This document shows, in pieces, positions 1 through 9,712 of a stretch of 59,028 bases of DNA. Location: assembly GCA_050287085.1 (NCBI GenBank), contig JBNKBE010000019.1, forward strand, positions 1 through 59,028, in the 5' to 3' direction. This stretch comes from Polyangiaceae bacterium (GTDB lineage Bacteria; Myxococcota_A; Polyangia; Polyangiales; Polyangiaceae). The position numbers and the translations under genes are program-made. How positions within the stretch are numbered: the first letter of the stretch is position 1; each line of letters begins with the position of its first letter. A model generated the notes under the pieces. That model saw only the letters and a program-made list of their open reading frames with translations, had not been told where the DNA came from and made no database searches.

Positions 1-56
1 TAAGGCGGAATGCGGGCAGCAGCTGCGCCGGGCGGGGTTGCGCTGATCTCGGCGGT

Positions 57-74
57 GGGTTTTCCTACATGCTC
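57..74 (+). mobile_element. Probable right end of an IS1182-family element (rest lies upstream of the window)
   Basis: GGTTTTCCTACATGCTC matches GGTTTTCCTACGGCCTC (7762-7778), which follows an IS1182 transposase remnant; both are immediately followed by GTTGG. Confidence 0.6.
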
Positions 75-83
75 GTTGGACGG
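75..83 (+). other. Integron core-site-like GTTRRRY (GTTGGAC-GG)
   Basis: Matches GTTRRRY; 8/9 reverse-complementary to CCGTCTAAC at 1064-1072. Confidence 0.5.
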
Positions 84-380
84 ACTCCACCCTTATCGCC
101 GAGAGGGCCGGCATTGCGATGCTCGGTGCACTCCTCTGGGCACGGCGTCACGGCCGGAGCTGTGTTCACTTCGCCCGTCTGAGACGATGGCAAGCTCCCT
201 CCCTAACCATCTTCGCTTCCTAGCGCTGCAAAGGTGCCCGGGTACAGTAGAGCTCGACACCACTGGACTGCTGAAGCTGCGCCTCCGCAGCGAGCTCGTT
301 GGTGTCTCCTCCTCCAATACCCGGGCATGCCTCGACCTCAAAAGTCTTGCCTAGACGAATACAAATGCGAATATACTCGG

Positions 381-623
381 GTGCCGACCACCATCCACAT
401 TCCTGAGACGCTCTTGAGCGAGGTTGACAAACGCGCGAAAACACTGAACCTTTCTCGCAATCGCTTCATCGTGGATGCACTCCAGAAAGCGCTGGCCGAG
501 GAGCCTCCCTGGTCTCCAGCGTTTCTAGAGGCCCTGCAAGACTTCACTCCGCTCGATGCCGACTACGATGTCGCCGCTCTCGTTCGGAAGAACCGCGTCA
601 GCCGAAAGCGCCCGCTGTTTTGA
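381..623 (+). CDS. vapB: Ribbon-helix-helix (CopG-like) antitoxin, VapB type
   Basis: GTG start at 381 within ORF 234..623; TTIHIPETLLSEVDKRAKTLNLSRNRFIVDAL has the RHH pattern; 4-nt overlap with the PIN gene; TATACT at 372-377. Confidence 0.85.
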   Translation: MPTTIHIPETLLSEVDKRAKTLNLSRNRFIVDALQKALAEEPPWSPAFLEALQDFTPLDADYDVAALVRKNRVSRKRPLF

Positions 624-1030
624 AGTACCTACTCGATACCAACACCGTATCCGAACTCATGCGGGGCAACCCCGCCGCCGTCGCAAGACTTCAGGAATGC
701 TCACGCTCTGACGTCGTCATCCCTCAACCCGTTATCGCTGAAGTCGAATTCGGTCTTGCCCTGCTGCCCAAAGGTAAGCGCAAGACTTCGCTACGGCAGC
801 GCTGGACTGTACTAAGCGCCGAACTGCTGCGCGTTGGGTGGACTGACTCCGTCAGCGAGGCCTTCGCACGCATCAAAAGTGGTCTCCACCAGAGCGGCGA
901 GCTTGTCGAAGACTTTGATGTGGCGATCGCTGCGCATGCCCTCGCCTGGGAGCTCTGCCTCGTCTCCAACAACACCCGTCACATGGCACGAGTTCGCGGC
1001 CTTCGGCTGCAAGACTGGACTGCCGAATAG
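620..1030 (+). CDS. vapC: PIN-domain ribonuclease toxin, VapC family
   Basis: YLLDTNTVS, VIAEVEFG, DFDVAIAAHA, LVSNNTRHM..V.GL.LQDW. Confidence 0.93.
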   Translation: MKYLLDTNTVSELMRGNPAAVARLQECSRSDVVIPQPVIAEVEFGLALLPKGKRKTSLRQRWTVLSAELLRVGWTDSVSEAFARIKSGLHQSGELVEDFDVAIAAHALAWELCLVSNNTRHMARVRGLRLQDWTAE

Positions 1031-1063
1031 CTTTTCAGTGCCACACGGAGCAGCCACTGGTCG

Positions 1064-1072
1064 CCGTCTAAC
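1064..1072 (+). other. Integron inverse-core-like RYYYAAC (CC-GTCTAAC)
   Basis: GTCTAAC at 1066-1072; reads GTTAGAC on the minus strand 20 nt after the IS110 stop codon. Confidence 0.5.
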
Positions 1073-1291
1073 TCACGCCCTGAGGCGGTCCGTCAAGCAG
1101 CGTTTGGTGAGTTGGCGGCGTTCTTGAGGAGGGGGGAACGGCGTTGTTGGAGCTGCTTGAGGTGTAGGGACTCGTCGTAGGGCTTGCGAGCGTGCCAGCA
1201 GCGAAAGAGGATGCGAAGCCACTTGAAGGCGAGAGCTCTGACGGCGCGATTGTGTGTGGCGCCGCGTTCACGTTGCTGACGATAGTAGGCA
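1073..1291 (-). mobile_element. IS110-family transposase C-terminal remnant and element end
   Basis: AYYRQQRERGATHNRAVRALAFKWLRILFRCWHARKPYDE is the IS110 C-terminus; stop at 1093; TTGACG overlaps the stop. Confidence 0.88.
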
Positions 1292-2014
1292 CCCGTGGGC
1301 GCCGATCTGGTTGGCATTGTTGAAGGTGTACTTCACCTCGGTATTGGTGTTGCTCACGGTACCGCCGTTGCCACCGCCGTAGTAGGCGATGCGGGCCGTA
1401 CCGGCGCCGGTCCCATTCGTGTTGGCACAACCCCCGTTGTAGTTGTTGTAGCCATACCCGACGTGAGCCAGAACGCCGTTATTGATCGCGTTCTTGTCGC
1501 CGCCGTGGAGCTCTGTCCAGCCGTCGTTGTTGCCGTCTAGCTCTGCGCCGGCAGCAATCTCCTGCTGCGTTGCCAAATTGAGATTGGCCGACAGCTGCAC
1601 AACCGCTACGTCAGCACCACCGGGCATCGCCCAGATGTTTGATGCCACGATGTTTACGGCTGTGCTGGCTTGGTTGCGAACACGAATGTTAGCCGGCGCT
1701 TGAATGTTCGCACCGCTGGTTCCGTCTGCCGACACGCAGTGACGTGCCGTGAGTACGAAGTTGTTACGAAGCAGCGTACCGCTACAGAAACCGGTGCAGG
1801 CCGGGGCCCCACCACAACCCTGCGTTCGCGCGTTGGTAAGCCGCACCTCGCGCGCGTCTTGCGTGCTGGTCCAAGCGGTGCCCAGCACGATTTCCGCTCC
1901 AACGGTCTTCGCTTCAACCGGAGGAGCCTCGAGAGGCACGTCAGCATAGTCGCCGCACCCCGACAATAGCGCCGCCATCAGCGCACAAGTCATCTTAATT
2001 CAAGAGAATTTCAT
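1292..2014 (-). pseudogene. Trypsin-like (S1) serine protease lipoprotein, truncated
   Basis: Lipobox LLSGC; CSGTLL..VLTARHC (catalytic His); DVAVVQL (Asp); breaks at IGAHG just before the expected GDSGG; upstream in-frame ATG at 2014 with AGGAG is cut by TGA at 2000-2002. Confidence 0.85.
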
Positions 2015-2056
2015 AGTCCTGCTCCTGGTCTGCCTTGCTGCCAAGATCCGCTAGAT

Positions 2057-3127
2057 CTAGCGTCTTGGTCTTTTTGCATTTTTGGGGATAGTCCTTCCCA
2101 CCCCAATACAAGTACACATGGTCACCAGTAGTGCCGCCCATGCACTTGGTCGCCCTGCTGCGTCGCTCACTCGACAGGTACACCCGGAAGACGCGTTCGC
2201 ACGACCAACGGTTCTCGCGTCGTGTTCCCTGTCCGCGTCGGCGTCCGCGCCGCTGTCGGCAGCTCCCGCATCCGCGGCCCGGGCGGAGTCTTGCTCTGAG
2301 TCGCCAGCGGCCCCGTTGCCAGCTGGCGCGTCACCGTTGGAGCCCTCCACTCCGTCACTGCCGTTCTCCACGCCGACACTCCCGCCCGGAACGCCGGCGC
2401 CGCCCACACTCACCGGCGCGGCGTTGTCCGGACGAGGTGGCGTTTCGATTGGGTCACCCGCCGCCGGCAGGGTCGGGCCAGAGCCCTCCCCCGGGGTCGC
2501 TGGTGGCGCGTCGTCTTGCCCGACAGGGGGACTCCCCTCGTTCGGTCCCTCCGGGTCGGCTCCGTCATCCGGGTCGACTAATTCGCCGTCCTCGACCTGT
2601 GGGGGCCCGTCCGCCTCGTCGTCTGCCGGCGAGTCGTCAAAGCCGGGGAGGGCCGGTACGTCGTCCTCGTCCACGGAACGGGCGCAGCCGTCGTCCCGGC
2701 ACGTACCGCTGAGGCACTCCGTGTCGACGGTGCAGTCGGCGCCCTCGTTCAAGCAAGCCCCGACGACGGGCGGCAGCGTCACCGGCGCCCACAACTCACC
2801 GTCCAAGGCCAAGATTTCGCCGTGCCGCGCGATGTCGTAGGAAGCCGAGTCGGAGGCTGACGAGAGGGTCAGCTCCTCGTTCTCTAGGGACCAGGTCTCG
2901 AACGACCCGGTCAGCTCGCAGGCCCCGTCGTCATGTACCCGCAGCCAGCGAACGTCCCCACTGTCCAGGAAGTGAACAGCGTCATCCTCCAGCTCCTCAC
3001 AGAGGACGTCTTCGCACCGAACCCAGGCTCCGCACAGGGTGCAGTCGCCCTGCGCCTGGGCCTGCTGAACAGTGAGGAGTATCGCAAGGGCGAGGAAAGC
3101 GCCCCCCGCCTGGTTTCTTGTTGACAC
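2057..3127 (-). CDS. Secreted Cys-rich acidic protein with MYXO-CTERM-like C-terminal anchor
   Basis: Signal peptide, Cys clusters, D/E/G/P-rich linker, SGCTCRV followed by a hydrophobic stretch and basic tail. Confidence 0.7.
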   Translation of the reverse strand: MSTRNQAGGAFLALAILLTVQQAQAQGDCTLCGAWVRCEDVLCEELEDDAVHFLDSGDVRWLRVHDDGACELTGSFETWSLENEELTLSSASDSASYDIARHGEILALDGELWAPVTLPPVVGACLNEGADCTVDTECLSGTCRDDGCARSVDEDDVPALPGFDDSPADDEADGPPQVEDGELVDPDDGADPEGPNEGSPPVGQDDAPPATPGEGSGPTLPAAGDPIETPPRPDNAAPVSVGGAGVPGGSVGVENGSDGVEGSNGDAPAGNGAAGDSEQDSARAADAGAADSGADADADREHDARTVGRANASSGCTCRVSDAAGRPSAWAALLVTMCTCIGVGRTIPKNAKRPRR

Positions 3128-3333
3128 CGGATGGCCACTAGCAATCTCGTCACAGAACTTTCAATGATGTGGAAGAACGAAACGCACAAGCGGTGGCGCA
3201 CCGGACCCGTAGGCGTCGGTCGCTCGACCGGACACCATCGCCGGCAACTCTGGGTCCTGGAAAGGGGGGAGGCTAGCGGCCGTTCTGCCCCCGCAACGGA
3301 GCCCCAGCGGACACCCCCCTATAACCCATCTCA

Positions 3334-4366
3334 TTGCAATTTCTGGATCTCCTGACAAACACACCACGACGCCGGGCGGGCTGCGTAACCCTGGCTCCGT
3401 TGGCCCCGTCGACGGCGGCTTTGCCAACGACTGCCCCGGCGGTGAGGCAGCTGTCCGTCAAACGCCCTGACCGCACCCTGGTCGCCTTCGCGTCCTGCAG
3501 CAGGACTGATCTGGAGCAACCACTCTGGGCCCCGCTGGCGCAAACGGATCCGGACGCCTTCGTATGGCTGGGAGACATCATCTACGCGGACAGTGAGGAT
3601 GTGGGCCTGCACCCCCGCCACTATGCCGCACAAGCCCAAGTCCCGGGCTACGTGGCTTTAAAGAACACCACCCCCATCCTGGGGGTTTGGGACGACCATG
3701 ACTACGGCGCGAATGACGCCGGTGAGGAGTATGTCTCCAAGGTCGAGAGTCAGCAGGCGCTGTTGGACTTCTTGGAGGAGCCGGCGGACAGTCCCCGCGG
3801 CACCCAGGAAGGCGTCTACGCCGCCTACGATGTCGGACAAGTGCCGCGTCAGGTCCGCGTCGTGTTGCTCGATACGCGCTACGGCCGCGGCGCGTCCGGG
3901 ACCCACATGCTCTCCCCGGCGCAGTGGCAGTGGCTTGAAGCCGTGCTGACCAAGTCGCCCGCGCAAGTGCACATCATCGGTTCCAGACTTCCGGTAATTA
4001 CGGACGACCACCCCTATGAGAGGTTGGAAGCACTACCCGAGTGAGAAGGCGCGTCTGCTAGACATACTATCGCGCACCCGGAACCCCATCCTGCTCAGCG
4101 GCGACCGGCACTTTGCGGAGCTTTCAAGACTCGTCCCACCAGAACACTACGTACCGCTCTATGACCTGACCTCAAGCGGCTTCACCCATAGCTACCAGCC
4201 CGAGCAGGAGCCGAACCGCCACCGTGTCGGACAAGGCTACTTTGAGCTGAACTTTGGCGCTATCGATGTGGACTGGGCCAACGCTCAACTCGCGCTCCGG
4301 GTACATGGCCCCGACGGCGTCGTGGGGCTCGATCACCGAGTGCCGCTGTCCTTGCCTGAGCGCTAA
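3334..4366 (+). pseudogene. phoD: Alkaline phosphatase D family protein, frameshifted at about 4021
   Basis: FASC, WLGDIIYAD, WDDHDYG.ND, LLDTRY in ORF 3334..4044; LSGDRHFAE, LTSSG and NFG in ORF 4016..4366; removing one A at 4021 restores HPYEGWKHYP. Confidence 0.88.
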
Positions 4367-4448
4367 ACCAGGGCAAGCGCCCCCGTACGGAAGCCAACAA
4401 CCGAGTCATCACCGACCCGTGTAGAAGCTCTCCCGCAACCAGAACACG

Positions 4449-4730
4449 TCAATGTTCCAACAGGGCGCCGATGTCGCACGTGCTCCATAACTCTCCGGGC
4501 GCCAACTGATCGGCCCCACCCACGAACCGAAGACGAGTCCTGACATCGCGACAAGACGAGGGGGCTTGCGTGTCCTCTAGGATTTCCGGCACCTCGGTCC
4601 AACACCACCCCGGCTCGCAGCCGTCGCACTCGTAGCTCGTCTGACAAGCCTCTAGCGCTGCACCGTCAAGCTGTTTGATATAGCAAACGCGCAGTCCCTC
4701 GTCGTCAAATCGTGGTTCGCCAGGCGGGGA
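4449..4730 (-). pseudogene. 5'-truncated C-terminus of a myxobacterial Cys-rich protein (not in the ORF track)
   Basis: 94-codon open frame lacking an N-terminal start: RVCYIKQLDGAALEACQTSYECDGCEPGWCWTE...C...LRFVGG...TCDIG. Confidence 0.6.
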
Positions 4731-4894
4731 CTAAGAGGCGGACCGCAAGGAGCTGGCGGCACTAACGCCCCGCACCGAGCGGTCCAACGATGTCGCGCGC
4801 CATGGAGATTGGCGCCAAGCCGGGCGCAAGACGTCGACTTCGTTCGAGATACGCCCACTGGACAAGCGCACCGCCAGGCTGCATGATTTCGGGA

Positions 4895-5107
4895 ATGGCA
4901 AAGCCTGCTCTCGACATGCAAACCCTCACTTCGCAGGAGAAGTTGGAGCTGATCGATGACCTGCTGGCGAGCATGGACTTCTCGAATCTGCCGCTCACTG
5001 CCGAGCAGCGGTCCGAGCTCGACCACCGCCTAGATCGACTCGAGAGCGAAGGCCCCGTCGGTATCGCGTGGGAGCAAGTCCACGCCGAGATGAAGTCCGA
5101 CGCGTGA
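4895..5107 (+). CDS. Addiction-module antitoxin (TIGR02574-like)
   Basis: LTSQEKLELIDDLLASM..PLTAEQRSELDHRL...GIAWEQV; GTGA overlap with a RelE/ParE gene. Confidence 0.88.
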   Translation: MAKPALDMQTLTSQEKLELIDDLLASMDFSNLPLTAEQRSELDHRLDRLESEGPVGIAWEQVHAEMKSDA

Positions 5108-5250
5108 GGGTGATACTTCGACGCGAAGCGCGCGTCGACGCCTTGGAGGCATTCCGCTGGTATGAAGACCAAGCGCCTGGGCTCGGTGCTGCATTCCGAA
5201 GTGCGCTCGATCATACAATGACCCGGCTTGGGACTCATGCGAACACGTAC
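5104..5250 (+). pseudogene. RelE/ParE-family toxin, C-terminal half replaced by unrelated DNA
   Basis: MRVILRREARVDALEAFRWYEDQAPGLGAAFRSAL; similarity stops near HANTY; the chimeric frame runs to 5316. Confidence 0.82.
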
Positions 5251-5461
5251 CGAGAACAGCTACACGATTCCAATACGGAAGGGGGTCCTCAGCGTCCGCT
5301 ACTCACGCGAATTTGAAGAACGCTGGCGTGAAGAGTTTCCGTACGCGCTCGACTACGTGCCGGACGGGCCCCATCACTCTGGGCGGTCCTCGATCAGGGG
5401 CTGGCGCTGCCCTCAGTGTTGGAAACTGTTTAGCGAATTTGGACAGCCCGAAGAGCCTTGA
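5250..5461 (+). pseudogene. Orphan C-terminal fragment of an unknown protein with a CxxC motif
   Basis: Protein-like frame ENSYTIPIRK...RGWRCPQCWKLF begins where ParE similarity ends. Confidence 0.4.
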
Positions 5462-5541
5462 TTGGCGTCCACAGCCTGCCTTGGTCTCGGGACTGACTGC
5501 AAATCGAGAATCCGTGCCAAAGTCCCGAATGCCGTGCCCGG

Positions 5542-5640
5542 CTACTTTGATGCCCAGTTGAGTAGCGCCAGGCCCTTGAACCGCTTGAAGTCTCTTGGAT
5601 TGGCGGTCACCACCGGAAGGCCATTCACCGTTGACGCTTC
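5542..5640 (-). pseudogene. VapC/PIN toxin C-terminal fragment
   Basis: VNGLPVVTANPRDFKRFKGLALLNW* is the typical PIN C-terminus. Confidence 0.75.
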
Positions 5641-5823
5641 CGCTTCGTTGATAGGCCCCGTTCGGCGCTCGCTCTTCCCCTTTGGGGATGAGCGCCAGTT
5701 GACGTATTCCGGAAACGCCTCACGCCGCGGCACAACGGCAGGTTGTTGCGCGGACTACGCTTCGTTGCTCGCAGTACGACGTTAACCAACCGTTCTTGCG
5801 AATGCGCCAGTCGCGCTCGACGC

Positions 5824-6759
5824 TTACCAGCGCTTGGCCTCGGCCTCCGGCGCACGTTCTTCGAACACCAACGAACGGAAGTCGAACAACTCTATCGCCT
5901 CTTCCGTCGCCAACCGCGACACACTACCCGCTCCCAGGCGATACATGCGCCCACTTCGTGCGAACACCACGTCGTCCCTGTCCCATGCCGCCCAGTCGCT
6001 TCGCCCCAACCCCGCGGTCATGCCCGTGGCTTCGTCGACCAACGAGTGACGCAACACGTACCACGGACCGTCCTGCTCGTGAATCCCATCCAACGTTCGG
6101 TAGAGCGCGTGCCCCTTTCCGACTTTCGTTCCGGGCGCCGACTGCGCGTGAACCTCACCCCCCTCGGCCGAATACCAAATCGGCGATCCTCGTCGATTCT
6201 TCTTCCACGTCGCGGTGCGGATGCGTCGCCACCCATCTCTTCGGTCCCGCACAACCGCGATTGGATCATCCTCCCCGCGTCCAGGCCTCTCCCCGAAAGG
6301 GACGACCCCAAAGGATTTGGGTAGCTGAAACCCTTCTGCCAGTTCCGTCTGCCCCTCGGGGTGGTTCAGTGCCAGCCGTCTCTCGGACTCGAATAGGCCT
6401 CCGCCACCCCACGCGTCTCCCTTCGGCCACATCGCCAACGCCGTTAGATTTGGCGGACGACTGATTGCTGTCCAACTTCCGCGACCGCTCTTCCAGTTCG
6501 CAGCGAAGTACACGAGCAGCTCTCCCGATGGCGACAGGTCACAACGACGTTCATATATTCTACCGTGCAGCCATTGCCCCACCGTGAACTGGTCGCGCGC
6601 CATGTCCCACTTCACGAGGGCAACTCGCTTCGAGGGCCCCCGTCGAAATATGACCGCGGTTCGCGCCTTCCGCGCCGTCAATGCGTACAACCGAACTGCT
6701 GCGTGCCCCATAGCTGGCAACGGTAGCATCGTTGTTTCACCGATGACCAGCGGCCTCAT
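5824..6759 (-). CDS. Conserved hypothetical protein (true start may be a later Met)
   Basis: 311-aa ORF with AVIFRRGPSK, GQWLHGRIYERRCDLSPSG and WGGGGLF motifs; Trp/Gly-rich, possibly propeller-like. Confidence 0.75.
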   Translation of the reverse strand: MRPLVIGETTMLPLPAMGHAAVRLYALTARKARTAVIFRRGPSKRVALVKWDMARDQFTVGQWLHGRIYERRCDLSPSGELLVYFAANWKSGRGSWTAISRPPNLTALAMWPKGDAWGGGGLFESERRLALNHPEGQTELAEGFQLPKSFGVVPFGERPGRGEDDPIAVVRDRRDGWRRIRTATWKKNRRGSPIWYSAEGGEVHAQSAPGTKVGKGHALYRTLDGIHEQDGPWYVLRHSLVDEATGMTAGLGRSDWAAWDRDDVVFARSGRMYRLGAGSVSRLATEEAIELFDFRSLVFEERAPEAEAKRW

Positions 6760-6852
6760 TTCGGGGAGCCGAGCTCTCCGTTTTCCAGCACCGATACGCC
6801 AACGACAAGAGCGGGCGCCGCGCGTAGGACCCCAACGCCAGCGCGAGAGAGT

Positions 6853-6949
6853 CAGTCATCGTCATGGGGACCTCCATCCGCGACCGCGTCCTGTGCGTCG
6901 TCCACGTCGAACGCGGCGAATCATCAGCGCCAGACCCGCTACCCGCACC
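6853..6949 (+). pseudogene. BrnT-family toxin fragment with an internal frameshift or deletion
   Basis: VIVMGTSIRDRVLCVVHVERG then, in another frame, RIISARPATR. Confidence 0.75.
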
Positions 6950-6954
6950 GCCCC

Positions 6955-7065
6955 GACTTCGACGATTGCCAGCTCGCCACCCTTCGTCGCTACATCAACG
7001 CACTTGGCGGCCACCTCGAACTCGTCGCCAGATTCGGCGACAAGCGCATCACGGTCGTTGGAGTC
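6955..7065 (+). pseudogene. XRE/HigA-type antitoxin C-terminal fragment
   Basis: Frame not in the ORF track: DCQLATLRRYINALGGHLELVARFGDKRITVVGV. Confidence 0.72.
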
Positions 7066-7094
7066 GCACCACCGAGTGATGAATCCGACAGCGC

Positions 7095-7778
7095 CTGCTC
7101 GAACCTGCTTGCGCCGCTCATCAAAGCGACACGCCAAGAGTTTGCCGAGCTGGACGGCGGGGGCGACGTCTTTTCGCGGGCCAAAGTCACCGCTGACAGC
7201 GGCTTTCATAACAAGGTCGTTTTGGCTGCAATCGAGAAGACCGATGCTGATGCGTACATTGCTGCTCGCGACTACCGTCGGCATGACCGGGCTTTTACGA
7301 GCCCACAACGCCACAAGCGGCGCAGCAATAAGAGCGAGCCTTGAAGCGTCGGAGAGAACGTGAAGCGCGCCCGTCCGCCGAGCAACGACTATTTGTGTCG
7401 CGGACTTCTAGTACGATGAGCAGAGAGATCTGCTCATCTGTCCCGCCGGACATCGGCTCTACAAGAGCGGCACGAACAGGCTCTTCATGGGTTATCGCGC
7501 TGACCACTTCAAGGCGCCAAAGACCGCGTGCCGAGATTGTGTTCACCCTCCGTGATCAGCGCCAGGTGAATGCCCAATGGCAGCTTTTCTCACTGGTCCA
7601 CAACGTCGAAAAGCTCACGGGAGGGCAGCGGGCTTGAACGCTCTTGCCGGGCGGTGGCCGCGGCGCCTACTCCGGCACGGGGCGCGCCAGCGCCAAACGG
7701 GACAGATTTGATGGCAATCGCCCTCGTAGCCGTGCATGGGCTTACGCTGCGCTCGTCCGCTGGTTTTCCTACGGCCTC
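7095..7778 (+). mobile_element. IS1182-family transposase pseudogene (3' part) with right end
   Basis: VTADSGFHN..DAYIA.RDYRRHD..F; LICPAGHRL..ACRDC; FTLRDQRQVNAQWQLFSLVHNVEKL* at 7637; contains stops, frameshifts and an internal deletion near 7540. Confidence 0.85.
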
Positions 7779-8180
7779 GTTGGGAGGACTACGCACTTCG
7801 GGGCATGCGTTGGAGGGCCAGAGTGACGTCACTGCAGATGCGCCGCCGAGCCATGCTGGCCCGACTCGAAACGGCACGGAAGCCCATCCCGTACCCGGCT
7901 CACCAGCCGCGCTTTGTTCCCGGTAATCTTGGGCCTCACTCGCAATCGAGACGGCCTTGGCCCTGGTGGCGATGGACTCCCATATCACCCCACGAATCGA
8001 TGAGGGGGTGGCCATTTTTCCCAACGTATCGGCGATTGTCCGAAAGGTCGTCACACGGGTGGAACTGATCGCTCGCTGGGCCGCAGCAATTTCGATGCTG
8101 CGGTCTCAGACATGCCGGTGAGTGCTGTTCTTGCTTGTCACCTCTTCAAGCGCTATGATTCCGCCTGCCGAGGAGAATCC

Positions 8181-8384
8181 ATGTCCCGCACCAGCACATC
8201 AGGAACTTACGAGGAACTCGTAGCCGAGGTGAAGAGGCTGCAGAGCGCAGGCGCGATTCCGATCCGCCCCACGCAAGAGCAGCGCGTTAGCTGGGCCTAC
8301 GGTCAGACCAAGTTGGAGAACAGCGACGTCACTCGTGAGGACGCGGTTCGAGCGGTTGAGGCACGTACGCAAAGCGCGCAATGA
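8181..8384 (+). CDS. Small putative antitoxin partner of the Fic protein
   Basis: AGGAG RBS; EQRVSWAYGQTKLEN resembles the Fic-inhibitory (S/T)xxxE(G/N) helix; ATGA overlap with fic. Confidence 0.7.
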   Translation: MSRTSTSGTYEELVAEVKRLQSAGAIPIRPTQEQRVSWAYGQTKLENSDVTREDAVRAVEARTQSAQ

Positions 8385-9013
8385 TCAGTTCTCCGCTGCT
8401 CTGCCGGCCAGAAGACAAAGCGAGGCTGGAAAACGAGAACGCGGTTGATCAACTTGATCTGATATCGCATCTGGTTAACGACTACCAGATTGACGCGCTC
8501 CGGGAGTCCCACGTCCTTGAGCTGCAGAGCTTGGCGATTCAGAACATCTACCCGTGTGGTGGCACGTACCGGGATGCGCGCGTCGCGGTGAGGATCGCGA
8601 ACAGTCCACATGAGATTCCGGAACCCGCGCTTGTCAAATCGCTCGTTGCGGAAGCGATCGACTGGATAAACGCGAAGAAAGAGGAATGCTCGCCGTTGGA
8701 ACGGGCTGCGTATGCACTCTGGCGGTTCAACTGGATACATCCCTTTCGTGGGGGCAATGGGCGAACCTCACGCGCGATCGCGTATCTCATCATTTGCATG
8801 TCGGAGCGCTGCATGTTGCCCGGTACTCCCGTAATGCCGGACCTGATATACGAGCGGCGCGACAAGTACATCGACGCACTTCAGGCTGTCGACGCATCGG
8901 CACTGATATCACCCGAAGCCCCCGACTTCACCGCGATGTCCAGCTTCTTGCGCGAAGTAATAACTACTCAGCTAGCCAGCGTCATCAGCCACCTATCTCA
9001 TCATCCCAGCTGA
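8381..9013 (+). CDS. Fic/Doc family protein
   Basis: WIHPFRGGNGRTSR motif; GTYRD. Confidence 0.93.
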   Translation: MISSPLLCRPEDKARLENENAVDQLDLISHLVNDYQIDALRESHVLELQSLAIQNIYPCGGTYRDARVAVRIANSPHEIPEPALVKSLVAEAIDWINAKKEECSPLERAAYALWRFNWIHPFRGGNGRTSRAIAYLIICMSERCMLPGTPVMPDLIYERRDKYIDALQAVDASALISPEAPDFTAMSSFLREVITTQLASVISHLSHHPS

Positions 9014-9019
9014 CCGCCT

Positions 9020-9303
9020 TCTGGATCGTCTTTGGCCCCGCTCGGATGCCACGCCCTGCGATAGCGCGCCAGCGTCTGCGGGTTCACGGGTAGATGACGA
9101 AGAAGTCGTGCTCCAACAGCGCCGAGACTAGCGGCCCCCTCGAAAGCTCAAGGCACACGGCAATGGGCTTCCCCTCGAATCGCTGCCTCAACTGCCTTGC
9201 CCATTCCTCCAGCTCCACGGGCCCGTGGGGCACCACGCTCTGCTCAACCCGCTCGGCGCCCGCAGCCTTCAGGCATACGTCGTGCTTCTTGTCTCCCCAG
9301 TCG
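9020..9303 (-). mobile_element. IS110-family transposase N-terminal (DEDD) remnant, frameshifted
   Basis: DWGDKKHDVCL...IAVCLELSRGPLV..YP then shifted VNPQTLARYRRAWHPSGAKDDP. Confidence 0.88.
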
Positions 9304-9712
9304 AAGCAGAAAGGTCTGCTCATCTGTCCCGCCGCACATCAGCTCTGCAAGAGCGGAATGCACAGGCGCTTCATGGGTTATCGTGCTGACCACTTCAAGG
9401 CGCCAAAGACCGCGTGCCGAGCTTGTGGTCTGCGCGAGAAGTGTCTTCGCAACCCAAAGACCCGCCCCACAACGGCAAGTGACGATCCTCAAGGGCCGCG
9501 AAGGCACCAAGCCCGCGCCCCCCGCGAAGCGCAGTGGGCCCGCAGAGCGCATGCGCTTCAAGTTTGATACGCCGCTGGGGCGAAAGCTCTACAGAACGCG
9601 CATGGGCGCCGTCGAACGCGTCTTTGCCAACCTCCAGAACAAGAGCCTGCGCCGCTTCACCCTCCGTGGACAGCGCAAGGTGAATGCCCAATGGCAGCTT
9701 TTCACCCTGCTT
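9303..9712 (+). mobile_element. Second IS1182-family transposase remnant
   Basis: Visibly near-identical to 7420-7600; LICPA..ACRACGLREKC, YRTRMGAVERVFANL, FTLRGQRKVNAQWQLF. Confidence 0.88.

Follow-up and report, generated by a model that had tools for sequence, protein, structure and literature searches.

Toxin-antitoxin (TA) cassettes have a role in sedentary chromosomal integrons and in CALINs. Recombination of attC requires the AAC/GTT triplets and the L boxes. The bridge RNA of the IS621 type lies upstream of the transposase and forms a target loop and a donor loop with two guides each. The IS1111-attC group of insertion sequences was reportedly described by Tetu and Holmes in 2008 and by Post and Hall in 2009. 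Excerpts of PMC4889954 describe IS elements as frequent in integrons and CALINs, and passages of five papers (PMC3001079, PMC11187229, PMC11616780, PMC12444791, PMC3971601) report two groups that target attC, namely the IS1111-attC group and the group IIC introns, both inserting antisense near the 5' end of the site. The members of the IS1111-attC group cited in passages of PMC3001079, PMC11187229 and PMC11616780 are ISPa21, ISPst6, ISKpn4 and ISPa25. IS1272 and TnSha1 are presented in the relevant sections of PMC5678879 as palindrome-targeting members of IS1182, which select stem-loops.

We analysed a stretch of 59,028 nucleotides from a Polyangiaceae bacterium, hereafter the window, which is the first part of contig C19 of a 6.2-Mb genome in 160 contigs. 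We conclude, with a probability of about 85%, that positions 75-1072 are a vapBC cassette on the plus strand, both borders of which were hit by two specialised attC parasites, an IS1182-family element on the left and an element assigned to the IS110 group on the right. The features of the locus are as follows:

1-74, plus strand: IS1182-family right end, with its terminal inverted repeat at about 59-74; the contig begins inside the element
75-83, plus strand: R' core of the upstream attC (GTTGGAC followed by GG); the duplicated target triplet is 75-77
84-356, no strand assigned: cassette leader, non-coding, with an imperfect hairpin at 235-327
357-377, plus strand: conserved direct repeat 5' of vapB, retained in the homologues of genomes G024 and G011
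381-623, plus strand: vapB-type RHH antitoxin, PF01402 (RHH_1); NF050181 matches weakly, under its cut-off
620-1030, plus strand: vapC PIN-domain toxin, PF01850; NF047863 matches at E 3e-22, under its cut-off
1064-1072, plus strand: R'' inverse core of the cassette's own attC, with GTCTAAC at 1066-1072; the remainder of the attC is lost
1073-1295, minus strand: 3' remnant assigned to the IS110 group, with the right end at 1073-1084 and the last ~65 transposase codons reaching to about 1293
1296-1993, minus strand: trypsin-like gene, its 3' end cut at the IS110 remnant, a probable deletion junction
7099-7785, plus strand: second, decayed IS1182 copy, with a right end (7778) again followed by GTT (GTTGGGA)
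9010-9305, minus strand: 5' piece of a same-family IS110 transposase, joined to a piece of IS1182 (9322-9712, plus strand)

The unit starts with the GTTRRRY core GTTGGAC at 75 (GTTGGACGG at 75-83), and a complementary RYYYAAC core, GTCTAAC at 1066 (CCGTCTAAC at 1064-1072), follows its last stop codon; both cores are present as the sequence-only reading had described them and are complementary at 8/9 positions. Taken alone, this match is weak evidence, because 3/9 letters are fixed and 5/30 mismatched core pairs from six cassettes of the genome also score 8. Between the cores, vapB and vapC overlap by 4 nt (620-623), which is the arrangement of a type II VapBC pair, with an RHH antitoxin overlapping a PIN toxin. 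The repeat at 357-377 is likely to be the promoter and operator bound by the antitoxin; a sigma-70 consensus scan for a promoter found no site. The leader of ~270 bp has no meaningful copy in the host genome or in the gathered loci. Its hairpin folds well (z -3.8, with 0/200 shuffles as stable), and we considered whether it is a decayed attC; this is doubtful, since the attC profiles give no match and there is no meaningful copy. Out of a complete attC (R'', L'', L' and R' with extrahelical bases), R'' alone is left at the window cassette; the arms are absent from the window, and neither the heuristic finder nor the attC profiles found an attC on C19.

The sequence-only reading had proposed looking for IS-free alleles in relatives. 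None was found in the 61 genomes searched with the DNA, nor among the VapC matches from 301 genomes, which gave 16 homologue loci; two of these loci are 84% identical, and none of the 16 has a convincing R'' downstream. What supports the cassette form is therefore the pair of flanking elements together with the cores, and not an IS-free allele. It could be argued that vapBC is an ordinary chromosomal TA module, caught between a foreign R' and a foreign R'' by deletion or insertion in a decaying array. Such a module would explain why 0/16 homologue loci have the cassette form, and it would accord with the unexplained 270-bp leader, the many fused IS fragments in the first 10 kb of the window, and cores matching at 8/9 compared with 9/9 in all five other cassettes of the genome (5/5). 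We nevertheless hold it to be improbable, since R'' starts 33 nt past the vapC stop and the unit, at 998 bp versus 1026-1751 bp, is comparable in size to the other five cassettes. Moreover, locus L031 in another genome of the same genus (G011) has the same design as the window cassette, a long leader followed by a TA pair, with cores complementary at 9/9; it reads IS1182 right end, GTTAGGCGG, BrnT gene and partner, CCGCCTAAC, IS110 right end.

Further TA-like genes and fragments lie amid IS wrecks at 4886-5316, 5545-5733 and 8112-9013. These are a PF09720 addiction-module antitoxin and its short partner, a fragment judged PIN-like by eye, and a Fic gene preceded by a small gene. Together with the IS wrecks, these genes near the cassette look like a decayed array. 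A PhoD-like phosphatase gene at 3334-4366 of the window is spread over two reading frames.

At the left border, positions 1-74 match a truncated copy on C29 at all 74 nt, and ends on C58, C65 and C68 at 97-99% identity. The same sequence follows the transposase C-terminus on C58, C30 and C29, which bears out the proposal that an IS1182-like end abuts the left core and led us to reject a long attC arm as the identity of 1-74. The C58 copy has DUF772 (PF05598) and DDE (PF01609) domains, and NF033551 matches a 340-aa fragment of the transposase at E 5e-47, below the whole-protein cut-off. A census of the genome gave 8 left ends and 14 right ends. GTT follows 12/14 right ends (exact GTTRRRY in 8) and precedes 7/8 left ends, far above the per-site genome background of 1.2% for GTT and 0.06% for GTTRRRY, so the flanks of these ends are non-random genome-wide. 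Unlike the 8/9 core match, this bias exceeds chance. We also considered whether GTT and AAC are part of the IS and rejected it: the inverted repeats pair without these letters, one related locus (L207) has ATT on both sides, and retargeted IS110 copies are flanked by sequence without GTT.

The host genome contains both intI and attC hairpins. In a profile search, an integron integrase at C15:169027-169968 scored 440 bits, over the TIGR02249 cut-off; this IntI has a long proline-rich N-terminal extension (G000 C15:170000-170560; open frame 593 aa). A likely attI core, divergent from IntI, opens a first cassette of 1751 bp, which ends with an attC and then an IS1182 left end at the contig break. 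The heuristic attC finder, set to admit 9-nt spacers, located nine attC with scores of at least 15 in the genome versus none in one shuffled genome, and six of the nine, with stem scores of 16-17, end at an IS1182 left end. With a profile of this ~150-nt attC family, we recovered more members, unoccupied or damaged, on C29, C35 and C1 but not on C19. The L'-R' spacing, compared by eye, is about equal in unoccupied and occupied members, so the IS adds nothing beyond the triplet. A second attC-like family of 117-118 nt occurs without IS1182 (G000 C21:1282-1399, C56:3491-3608 and C66:1080-1196), and its C66 site adjoins a tyrosine recombinase fragment.

Folded as bottom strands, the flanks of 6/8 IS1182 left ends give attC structures with two extrahelical bases (z -2.1 to -4.7, 60 shuffles). 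At all six occupied attC of the genome, IS1182 lies at R', the 3' foot, with the hairpin whole, in the arrangement attC...GTT-IS1182-GTTRRRY-cassette. This order, with attC to the left of the IS and the cassette to its right, places the vapBC cassette on the plus strand, as does the antisense position of the IS110 element after R''; the array orientation, which had been thought unresolvable, is thereby resolved. The claim that both IS displaced the attC arms holds in part. On the left, where the correction draws on the six occupied sites elsewhere in the genome (the window's own upstream site being off the contig), the hairpin is left whole. On the right, a later deletion probably took the rest of the cassette's attC together with most of the IS110 copy.

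We scanned species genomes for relatives of the IS1182 element and obtained 73 loci with 33-75% identity, labelled Polyangiaceae, other Deltaproteobacteria, Acidobacteriaceae, Beta- and Gammaproteobacteria, and Verrucomicrobia. In 48/73 we located both ends; the other 25 had an end beyond the contig or one that the search pattern missed. The results showed a target duplication of exactly 3 bp in 48/48 (39 GTT, 8 AAC in reverse orientation, 1 ATT), flanking inverted repeats with 12-16 of 16 positions identical; terminal inverted repeats and a duplication characterise the IS1182 family, and the window holds the right end only. RRRY with at most one mismatch comes next in 35/39 forward copies, and the target logo reads C at -1 (41/45), GTT, A/G, G, G, C/T. 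An attC score of at least 13 was reached by 20/39 forward and 3/8 reverse targets, compared with 14/400 in the null set; the failing targets are either variant sites missed by the finder or many off-target insertions. The reverse-orientation copies form a subclade at the same triplet, mostly of Rhodocyclaceae type (L165, L166, L168, L170, L171, L183, L193, L197). Locus L207 (Nitrincola), with ATT duplicated, has an attC-like site whose R'' is AAT, a compensatory core variant. One contig of a deltaproteobacterial MAG (L141, L148, L146, L142) carries at least 5 IS1182 copies in ~25 kb of one array, some on consecutive cassettes. Among plasmids, relatives at E <= 1e-40 occurred in 2/72,556 records, both from Pseudoalteromonas.

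A PAS-histidine kinase-receiver gene is apparently split at GTT by IS1182 (C18:74, L221; C30:968, L222). The PAS frame on C18 ends and the HATPase frame on C30 begins at GTT, and the two align nearly end to end on a paralogue, which suggests that C18 and C30 are the two sides of one IS1182 insertion. The hairpin at this GTT site is weak, so GTT in a loose context can apparently suffice for IS1182. By end type, the four identical left ends on C15, C18, C20 and C68 correspond to the four near-identical right ends on C19, C58, C65 and C68; the ends left over are a variant left one on C65 and a variant right one on C30. The ends at the kinase gene may come from different variants, and an IS-cassette-attC-IS unit, for example that of contig C65, may lie inside the gene. 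The end types would allow such an IS-cassette-IS unit in the kinase gene, and they would also be compatible with an intI array whose tail is the window; the window end is identical to the truncated C29 copy as well. Linking the contigs through collapsed IS1182 copies failed, since the middle of the element is absent from the assembly and the order could not be fixed.

The kinase gene bears on how IS1182 finds its target. If the element recognised a short double-stranded sequence (about CGTTAGGC), it would meet attC only through the R' cores while the hairpin stayed idle, and the strong target logo, the failure of about half of the targets on the attC score and the gene split at GTT would all follow. 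The bottom strand of R'' carries the same consensus, however, yet 6/6 occupied attC were hit at R'; rare unrelated GTTRRRY sites should also be hit more often, and the ATT of L207 with its AAT partner box fits structure over sequence, in one case. We therefore consider recognition of a short sequence unlikely, though the least unlikely of the rival readings. Much less probable still is that IntI rather than the transposase integrates a circular IS1182, its ends joined via GTT, at the G/TT crossover and so mimics a GTT duplication. The insertion point does coincide with the IntI crossover triplet, and IntI insertion at GWT secondary sites, as described in part of a preprint by Loot et al., could explain the kinase case. 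Against this, the element has a DUF772 and DDE transposase and terminal inverted repeats, ATT on both sides of L207 is what a staggered cut predicts, contrary to a G/TT exchange, and 8/48 copies belong to the subclade in reverse orientation.

We favour insertion by the transposase at attC. The position, orientation and duplication of the IS1182 insertions can be read directly from the aligned genome sequences. The DDE element would insert at the 3' foot of attC with a 3-bp staggered cut across the R' triplet, and we infer that it reads the attC hairpin, because all six occupied attC were hit at R' and the ATT site has an AAT partner. An occupied attC would stay recombinogenic, as its AAC/GTT triplets and L boxes are kept, and IS1182 would then travel along, forming the 5' portion of the cassette that follows.

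At the right border, the ~220-bp remnant confirms that an IS110 end abuts the right core; this right end lies 25 nt past the transposase stop. A unitig of run X1, possibly the source run and hence not independent support, spans 50-7528 across the junction with the trypsin-like gene, so the junction also occurs outside this assembly. Run X2 held short pieces of the stretch only, and one run alone holds it. The C-terminus encoded by the remnant is 55-67% identical to relatives. A full relative in the same genus (L025 in G002, 421 aa) splits a complete attC of the long family directly after AAC, following R'', in antisense orientation, and antisense insertion near the attC 5' end was likewise found for the window element and other relatives. 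The relatives have the DEDD and PF02371 domains of IS110 recombinases and a non-coding region of ~250 nt upstream of the transposase, and L025 scores over the NF033542 cut-off. Because of this long upstream region and the protein length, the right element is assigned on sequence features to the IS110 group, not to IS1111; filing it under the IS1111-attC group was ruled out by RNA position and protein length. The right element falls outside the published IS1111-attC group.

A metagenome scan gave 80 IS110 loci; six partial matches and one duplicate were dropped, and the remaining 73 were analysed together with L025. A quick protein tree recovered a clade of 43 rows (SH-aLRT 98), to which L058, outside the tree because of stop codons, was added by similarity. 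GTT follows the right end in 37 of these 44 rows and another triplet in 1, while 6 are unreadable because the end was short or was not found; outside the clade, the counts over 30 rows are 4 with GTT, 15 without and 11 unreadable. Reconstituted targets scored at least 10 in 15/27 cases versus 22/500 random sites. The window remnant is nearest to the GTT-flanked members of the clade. Four loci outside the main clade (L082, L089, L103, L112) also have GTTA after the right end, possibly through separate origins of attC targeting or a tree error. The flank census and the occupied attC hairpins together support the claim that both IS families target attC, and this targeting, the cores, and the intI and attC hairpins of the genome uphold the identification of the vapBC unit as an integron cassette.

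In the relatives, the region upstream of the transposase folds as two loops with an inner stem in each. We aligned 24 of the 37 sequences on this fold, drawing the two inner stems by eye: 95% of cells pair, compared with 28-38% in slid controls, and 16/29 pairs change on both sides, a value that 0/500 shuffles reach, although kinship among the sequences inflates these covariation figures. Four guide-like stretches covary with DNA, their partners being the core and L'' arm of attC on the target side and the two ends of the element itself on the donor side. The right target guide is GTTA/G in 34/37 and is altered along with the flank in 3 non-attC copies (L071, L072, L086). The left target guide matches its own flank (L'' arm and spacer) at 5.69 of 7 positions versus 3.99 +/- 0.16 after permutation (32 pairs, 0/2000 permutations as high), and the donor guides match the element's left end in 37/37 and its right end in 36/37. 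These results indicate a two-loop RNA with target and donor guides in the relatives; the RNA region of the window copy is lost, and its guides would be those read off the relatives. In the retargeted members L071, L072, L086, L227 and L228, which include an ISCfr13-like element on an E. coli plasmid, the guides follow the flanks.

The insertion position and the covariation of guides are evident from the sequences of these relatives. An IS110-group recombinase with an upstream bridge-like RNA would thus insert antisense at the junction of R'' and the spacer, one guide spelling the invariant core and the other the variable L'' arm plus spacer; by analogy, the RNA would be made and used as in IS621 and ISEc21. 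Both elements also occur together on a single attC. In L138, a full-length, frameshifted IS110 follows R'' and a full IS1182 sits at R'; in L088, R'' carries an IS110 and R' the stump of an IS1182 left end. Within one attC, the two lineages therefore insert at opposite ends.

As the attC arms are deleted, IntI is probably now unable to excise vapBC as a single unit, and the cassette would be fixed in place. A wider reading, to which we hold only tentatively, is that attC is shared out between two parasites with opposing effects. The structure-guided IS1182 would keep the site usable, ride on IntI and bracket composite transposons; pairs of IS1182 would leave the array as such transposons, possibly what split the histidine kinase gene. 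The RNA-guided IS110 clade would freeze cassettes, with one guide fixed on the invariant core and the other retuned to the L'' arm of each host. If IS1182 does read the structure of attC, site-specific targeting of integron sites has arisen in a classical DDE transposase, with a testable substrate in the hairpin foot and the 3-bp cut, and integron shuffling would be linked to transposition, with IntI carrying the IS and paired IS copies carrying cassettes out. The IS110 clade is a naturally occurring set of bridge-RNA guides matched to differing attC arms; it includes retargeting events and so illustrates the evolution of these guides. At a practical level, both elements interrupt assemblies and mask attC. 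In this genome the pieces of the array lie dispersed at contig ends and no attC can be called in the window, so arrays of this kind will be undercounted by cassette finders.

Our literature search found no paper on IS1182 at attC or on an IS110 group with an upstream RNA at attC; earlier notice is possible, and both attC-seeking lineages are apparently undescribed in print. Compared with the known systems, the IS110 clade differs from IS1111, whose members, according to passages of PMC11187229, are 330-350 aa long with a downstream non-coding region and sub-terminal repeats, in its ~420-aa transposase, its ~250-nt upstream region and a right end that usually lies 25-50 nt past the stop. In its upstream two-loop RNA, it resembles IS621 and ISEc21, which use IS110-group bridge or seek RNA. 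The nearest named member found is ISCfr13: an ISCfr13-like plasmid protein, near-identical by eye to the ISCfr13 supplement entry, is 47.5% identical to the element of the same genus and has the same right end. The attC core is what most of the clade reads, but in this copy and its closest loci (L071 and L072, 61% identity) the guides have changed and the flank is not attC. Group IIC-attC introns, as described in part of PMC3001079, are like the IS110 clade specialised for attC, antisense and near the 5' end of the site, but they are retroelements with another chemistry, and they share the R'' side with the IS110 clade rather than the R' side of IS1182. IS1272 replaces or deletes its target stem-loop without duplication, according to the relevant sections of PMC5678879, whereas in the IS1182 lineage described here the hairpin is retained, 3 bp are duplicated and insertion falls on the integron crossover triplet. 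The window cassette itself is a genuine TA cassette, now immobilised, and bears the record of two attC-specialist lineages at its opposite cores. It resembles the TA cassettes of sedentary chromosomal integrons and CALINs in having two genes, a probable promoter of its own and an IS-broken array, and differs from them in that its attC is destroyed, so that it is probably fixed in place.
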